IMG/VR virus record: IMGVR_UViG_2671180360_000013
Coordinates: 1 to 24,008 of that record
Length of the DNA: 24,008 nucleotides
Origin: a virus
Taxonomy: Duplodnaviria; Heunggongvirae; Uroviricota; Caudoviricetes
Reading direction: 5' to 3' (one strand)
Positions 18,935 through 19,012 of this stretch are shown piece by piece. Made by a program: the position numbers and the translations under genes. Position 1 is the stretch's first letter; each line of letters opens with the position of its first letter. The notes under the pieces are model-generated. The model saw nothing but the letters and a program-made list of their open reading frames with translations. It did no database searches and had not been told where the DNA came from.

Positions 18935-19012
18935 ATTTCTATTTCTATTTCTATTTCTATTTCTATTTCTATTTCTATTTCTATTTCTATTTCTATTTCT
19001 ATTTCTATTTCT
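18935..19012. repeat. Hexanucleotide microsatellite (ATTTCT)13
   Basis: About 13 perfect tandem copies of ATTTCT read directly from the sequence, ending ...ATTTCTGTTTGTTG. Confidence 0.9.

Follow-up and report, generated by a model that had tools for sequence, protein, structure and literature searches.

VNTR-9, a hypervariable ATTTCT repeat in the nin region of a lambdoid prophage, is very probably a neutral, slippage-prone microsatellite

Short arrays of six-base units serve as markers in MLVA (multiple-locus analysis of variable-number tandem repeats) of Escherichia coli O157:H7, and one such locus has been described as O157-9 (Keys 2005), TR1 (Noller 2003) and Vhec4 (Lindstedt 2003). These names and VNTR-9 (for variable-number tandem repeat, VNTR) are synonyms for a single locus with a 6-bp unit (PMC3768571, Table 1; PMC3321953, Table 1), whose motif is given as AAATAG under the name TR1 (PMC2246123, Table 2). 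Among German O157 it has 6-23 repeats, 15 alleles, a diversity index of 0.90, which is the highest of eight loci, and null alleles in 31.7% (PMC3321953); in Japan the clade medians are 0-12 (PMC10062581). On serial passage it mutates at 1.3e-4 per generation, compared to 1.8e-3 for O157-10, which is about tenfold faster (PMC3777172). The other 6-bp VNTRs of enterohaemorrhagic E. coli (EHEC) O157 that are used in MLVA (O157-3, O157-10/TR2, O157-17, O157-19, O157-25 and O157-37) are likewise short pure hexamer arrays that gain and lose whole units (PMC3777172), but their motifs and loci differ. We analyzed a stretch of 24,008 bp of viral DNA (IMG/VR record IMGVR_UViG_2671180360_000013, positions 1 to 24,008; hereafter the window), which carries a perfect (ATTTCT)13 tract at 18935-19012, and we are nearly certain that this tract is the locus VNTR-9/O157-9/TR1/Vhec4. 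It is already known and not new, although the initial annotation of the window did not recognize it as an established MLVA locus; as a standard epidemiological marker for STEC (Shiga toxin-producing E. coli) O157 since 2003-2006, it carries little weight as a discovery.

The identification draws on the repeat unit, the primer sites and the genomic position. The reverse complement of AAATAG, CTATTT, is a rotation of ATTTCT, so the unit agrees in length and in sequence. Two published primers have exact sites on the minus strand of the window: the TR1 primer of Noller, ACTGCATGATAAGCCTCAGG (PMC2246123, Table 2), at 19089-19108, and the forward primer of the PulseNet VNTR-9 assay, GCGCTGGTTTAGCCATCGCCTTCTTCC (PMC3321953, Table A1; PMC8461963), at 19200-19226. 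For either primer, zero such matches are expected by chance. The second of these sites overlaps the ribosome-binding site and start codon of an HNH endonuclease gene. For the VNTR-9 reverse primer and the second TR1 primer there is no site in the window at up to 3 mismatches, but these reverse primer sites define the assay, not the tract. In O157:H7 strain 86-24, the same tract, there with 11 units, is flanked by the full primer pairs of both assays, and the VNTR-9 amplicon is 538 bp (published range 474-614 bp; PMC8461963). We checked whether the O157:H7 VNTR-9 amplicon might map to another tract, and it maps to the same one, upholding the identity.

The genomic setting agrees as well. In the Sakai genome, a 9-unit tract is found in prophage Sp17 between a partial copy of the insertion sequence IS30 (ECs_3505) and the endonuclease gene ECs_3504, and both there and in the window the tract lies directly upstream of the HNH endonuclease, ninG, phosphatase and Q genes of a lambdoid prophage (ECs_3504-3501 in Sp17). 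The two loci share the 6-bp unit, the right flank with its two exact primer sites, the 15 bp to the left of the tract, the same downstream genes and the hypervariability. Orthology with VNTR-9 holds because the two loci agree across more than 380 bp to the right of the tract and 15 bp to its left. They differ farther to the left, where O157:H7 has a truncated IS30 while the window has an intact upstream region and a gene for a protein of 590 amino acids (aa).

The perfect array reported by the initial annotation was confirmed by an exact scan, with zero mismatches, and by Tandem Repeats Finder (TRF), which calls it at 18934-19016 with period 6, 13.8 copies and 98% matches. The window has no second perfect short tandem repeat that reaches 12 bp, and given the window's base composition, about 5e-37 occurrences of 12 further exact copies would be expected by chance anywhere in it. 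The right flank, at 19013-19060, is degenerate and repeat-like (GTTTGT TGTGGT TTTTTC ... ATTTCG ATTTGT), and its first unit is ATTTGT in O157:H7 and in Escherichia albertii. The motif itself is generic and not special. A scan of species-representative genomes turned up more than 120 genomes of unrelated bacteria and archaea with at least 5 ATTTCT units in a row (20 at most), Proteus, Vibrio, Shewanella, Clostridia and Bdellovibrionales among them; the flanks of the present locus accompany none of these matches, and no orthologues were gained from them.

The initial annotation proposed that the copy number could change by slippage and that counts should be compared across relatives. A 278-bp query centered on the tract matched 524 of 5,426 complete E. 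coli genomes, 245 of them with both flanks and most of the others of the O157:H7 type. Allele sizes are partly inferred from the match lengths, which differ from the query in 6-bp steps. In an evenly spaced sample, alleles with intact flanks had 5-13 units (n=28), and those of the IS30 type had 4-14 units (n=24) with six more above 14 units. Direct counts gave 23 units in strain 7_15_5C, 17 in F7386, 11 in 86-24, 9 in Sakai and 7 in PEC240. Eleven IMG/VR viral contigs gave 4, 6, 8, 9, 10, 10, 11, 11 and 14 units and two more alleles that are interrupted by ATTTCC. Over complete genomes and viral contigs together the range is 4-23 copies, with alleles of 4-14, 17 and 23 units measured or inferred. 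In an alignment of five alleles the flanks are nearly invariant, and the unit count accounts for all of the length difference. The counts differ among relatives, so the identical copy number that would have spoken against slippage was not found, and the proposal is borne out. Alleles differ even within one clonal serotype (O111:H8), and together with the published rate (PMC3777172) this gives the tract the high mutability that is characteristic of contingency loci.

We propose that the tract is a hypervariable prophage microsatellite in the non-coding, AT-rich DNA of an insert in the nin region, where out-of-register realignment of six-base units in replication (slipped-strand mispairing) would add or remove whole units at about 1e-4 per generation. 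The resulting length differences would be selectively neutral: no switch, but a side effect of the repeat being pure and above the slippage threshold. Taken as a whole, including both the identity and the neutrality, we hold this explanation to be highly probable. Neutrality is the most likely reading of the length differences because of four observations on the 590-aa gene and the alleles. Three O111:H8 strains in which this gene carries the same 1-nt frameshift, and whose neighboring proteins are identical, have 13, 8 and 7 units. O157:H7 genomes, in which the gene is severed by IS30, have a similarly wide allele spread. Alleles with odd and even unit counts are equally frequent in the two sampled sets (14:14 and 12:12), which is not expected if helical phase mattered. 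Lastly, homologues of the 590-aa gene located elsewhere (an E. albertii island by nleF and a Salmonella cdd-sanA islet) have no short tandem repeat upstream. DNA folding of both strands of the tract gave no structure (0 and -0.3 kcal/mol), so slippage needs no hairpin, and we dropped both hairpin-driven slippage and a structured RNA as candidates. An Rfam scan of 16000-20000 at E<=1 returned only a chance miRNA-like match, far below threshold and distant from the tract.

Repeat tracts that control genes are known from other bacteria. In Neisseria, a TAAA tract upstream of the nadA promoter tunes expression, and switching at repeat loci of Neisseria, Haemophilus and Helicobacter has been shown experimentally. 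The initial annotation likewise suggested phase-variable or tunable expression here; the length of the tract would change the distance or helical phase to a promoter, either that of the 590-aa gene or one for HNH-ninG-Q, in a heritable and reversible way. We regard such a role as improbable. The tract does resemble those loci (nadA with TAAA; hifA/B with TA repeats between -35 and -10) in being a hypermutable intergenic repeat upstream of a gene, as the observed alleles and the published rate show (PMC3777172). It also lies between divergent genes in the same insert as the 590-aa gene, is kept in the orthologous module of E. albertii, and with each 6-bp unit would rotate the helix by about 206 degrees, so that phasing shifts at every step. 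In the described systems, however, the tracts are within or adjoining the core promoter or operator, whereas here some 190 bp separate the tract from the nearest predicted promoter. A strict sigma-70 scan of 18550-19300 predicted only one promoter, on the minus strand at 18718-18747 (TTGACG, an 18-nt spacer and a TG-extended AATAAT), directed towards the 590-aa gene, with its -35 element 188 bp from the tract. The same scan found no promoter between the tract and the HNH gene, and a looser scan added only 8-of-12 matches. The tract is thus an intergenic hexamer array outside the predicted core promoter; it is not between -35 and -10, nor is it in an open reading frame (ORF) with a unit size that would shift the frame. 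It is equally variable where the 590-aa gene is a pseudogene or absent, the alleles have no parity bias, the paralogues lack an upstream repeat, and our full-text literature search found no paper tying O157 VNTRs to phase variation. The evidence therefore speaks against a regulatory role, and tunable expression remains unsupported.

Some points do weigh against neutrality. The promoter placement comes from consensus matching and is a prediction, the ATTTCT tract stays pure in the E. albertii module despite diverged flanks, and the tract is always found together with the 590-aa gene, in its 575-bp upstream region. The retention in E. albertii and the constant linkage are compatible with some function, and we leave a slight chance that tract length tunes the neighboring genes, be it the 590-aa gene or, by read-through, HNH-ninG-Q. 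For the more specific proposal that VNTR-9 length acts through H-NS/Ler-type silencing or helical phase at the 590-aa gene, or through read-through into HNH-ninG-Q, we would put the chance lower still. If it were true, a longer AT-rich tract would set the expression of a possible type III secretion system (T3SS) effector, read-through would alter late-gene expression and, in Stx1 phages, toxin expression, and a marker used for two decades for typing alone would be a functional EHEC contingency locus. We also considered and rejected two other routes by which the tract could act. The initial annotation raised altered DNA curvature, but bends spaced at 6 bp cancel, 13 units sum to about the bend of one unit, and no cumulative curvature is to be expected. 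An Hfq-type (ARN)n site on a minus-strand (AGAAAU)n transcript was dropped since the only promoter of the strict scan on that strand lies downstream of the tract, and upstream of it the looser scan has only 8-of-12 matches.

Two further readings of the tract, as coding sequence and as the mark of an insertion, can be weighed against neutral slippage in non-coding DNA. Two forward ORFs span the tract, at 18866-19060 (...ISISISIS...) and, in a second frame, at 18876-19151 (...FLFLFL...), so hexamer slippage could vary the length of a small repeat protein in frame. The first of them is annotated by PGAP in some genomes as WP_001428177.1 ('...NISISISISISIS...'), early EDL933 annotation had Z3935/Z3936, and the locus has been listed inside that ORF (PMC3321953). 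But the unit contains no stop, so the tract is open in all three forward frames, and neither of the spanning ORFs has a Pfam or PHROG match. In the sampled records the ORF is annotated only at about 11 or more copies, with shorter alleles left featureless. In O157:H7 its first 18 codons (to 18920-18921) are replaced by IS30 and the tract is still maintained, and by eye there appears to be no strong ribosome-binding site. A coding role is scarcely credible on these grounds; we judge the ORF spurious and WP_001428177.1 almost certainly a false gene call made by the repeat, which automatic annotation keeps calling across long alleles.

The tract might otherwise be the scar or target of a mobile-element insertion, such as a module joint or an attachment-type site, and the initial annotation suggested that it may mark the insertion joint. 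The region is a mosaic hot spot, in O157:H7 an IS30 with a duplicated GT target sits 13 bp left of the tract, and in PEC240 an IS3 is located 64 bp to its right. The edges of the module are nevertheless at about 16388 and at 19193/19194, which leaves the tract 181 bp inside the right edge, so that of the suggested joint only the nearby IS30 junction of O157:H7 stands. In addition, the tract has the same flanks on both sides in genomes with neither insertion sequence, the HNH gene also occurs without the module (in H147), and in no relative did we see the flanks joined without any unit, the minimum being 4 units. We consider it very unlikely that the tract is such a scar or target.

The IS30 next to the tract bears on how VNTR-9 is typed. 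Homology between O157:H7 and the window begins at 18920, 15 bp to the left of the tract, and the IS30 junction in O157:H7 is 13 bp to its left. In the cattle isolate SMN197SH3, the left flank of the window continues to 18921, where the opposite end of IS30 adjoins it. GT is common to both junctions, in keeping with the 2-bp target duplication that is expected of IS30. We infer from these flank comparisons that the O157:H7 lineage took up a single IS30 at 18920-18921 and that a later rearrangement parted its halves. Today the halves occupy different places or different genomes, which points to an IS30-associated rearrangement, and given a single insertion in O157:H7, the left flank of the window would be intact and ancestral. 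In O157:H7 the truncated IS30 holds the reverse primers of both the TR1 and the VNTR-9 assays. Because this IS30 is absent from the window, the PulseNet PCR would record a null allele here even though the tract is present, and in other carriers devoid of the IS30, null alleles would have the same explanation. The "O157-specific" reverse primers thus sit in an IS30 that is peculiar to O157:H7, and carriers like the present prophage, which is of the O26/O111 type, have a sound, variable allele that would be null in the standard PCR. As a separate observation, the IS3 of PEC240 is at window position ~19076, between the tract and the HNH gene, where it falls inside a weak terminator-like hairpin at 19067-19083.

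The window contains the early region of a lambdoid prophage, with Dam, NinE, an insert, HNH, NinG, phosphatase and Q in this order. To set the edges of the insert, we compared the window to many prophages and to lambda, 21, 434 and Sf6. Homology ends at about 16387, after ninE, and returns at 19194-19239, a 46-bp stretch that lambda, 21, 434 and Sf6 have at their ninF/ninG junction and that marks the right boundary of the insert. The insert (~16388 to 19193) has a low GC content (27-42%), comprises the 590-aa gene with the 575 bp upstream of it, in which the tract lies, and stands in for ninF between ninE and a ninG-type start. It is a moron-like insert in the nin region of lambdoid prophages, Stx1 prophages among them, in EHEC and E. 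albertii. The Stx1-converting phages AU6Stx1 and SH2026Stx1 have the whole arrangement, and so does E. albertii, with 6 units and diverged flanks.

The HNH gene (19211-19777, plus strand) is a free-standing endonuclease gene with a match to HNH_3 and a sub-threshold match to AP2, and is followed by ninG, the phosphatase gene and Q. It starts at ATG 19211 with a 188-aa product of the PGAP type. The initial annotation had the tract just upstream of this gene, which is correct as to the side; the distance from the end of the tract to the ATG is 199 bp. The gene is a second insert, found without the 590-aa module in H147, and it looks like an insert of the homing-endonuclease type at the start of ninG. 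The 46 bp of the lambdoid ninF/ninG junction recur here as its ribosome-binding site and first ~10 codons (MAKPARRRC...), and an imperfect 20-bp tandem duplication called by TRF at 19229-19269 follows this stretch. Upstream of the HNH gene, a block of ~95 bp (19100-19193), in which there is a 38-aa ORF (19102-19218), is near-identical between E. coli and E. albertii, with the remaining intergenic DNA diverged by several percent. This near-identity could reflect a functional element or recent recombination.

The 590-aa gene is an orphan gene on the minus strand at 16846-18618. The initial annotation read it as a 617-aa gene about 240-290 bp from the tract. The tract is indeed upstream of it, 236 bp from the ATG at 18699 that opens the 617-aa ORF, but 317 bp from TTG 18618, which is preceded by AGGAGG and is likely to be the real start. 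We prefer the 590-aa reading because PGAP annotates the relatives in this way and because PHROG 9230 spans residues 28-617 of the longer ORF. The protein has no match in Pfam, NCBIfam, PADLOC or PDB sequence searches. Its family was found in E. coli, E. albertii, Salmonella enterica and Providencia only; these are enteric bacteria known to have T3SSs. The gene is low in GC; its product is rich in Ser/Thr in the N-terminal region and is predicted to contain hydrophobic helices. In E. albertii, a paralogue (71% identical) has nleF and an AvrPphF-like gene as neighbors. Because of the restricted family, the low GC, the Ser/Thr-rich N-terminus, the hydrophobic helices and these neighbors, we consider the protein a candidate for an unrecognized T3SS effector. 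An AlphaFold2 model built on an alignment of 19 sequences had a confidence (pLDDT) of 43.6, too poor for a fold search. In O111:H8, the gene is split into two ORFs by a 1-nt deletion at nt 895 (codon 299), and the halves are annotated as separate hypothetical proteins of 310 aa and 275 aa, for which PHROGs keeps separate families (phrog_14900 and phrog_13344). This uncharacterized family may merit attention in its own right. Elsewhere in the window, four direct repeats of ~20 bp (CATCCCCCAAAACGAGGGAA-like) at 12716-12793, within a replication protein O-type gene (12369-13307), look like the iterons of a lambda-type origin.
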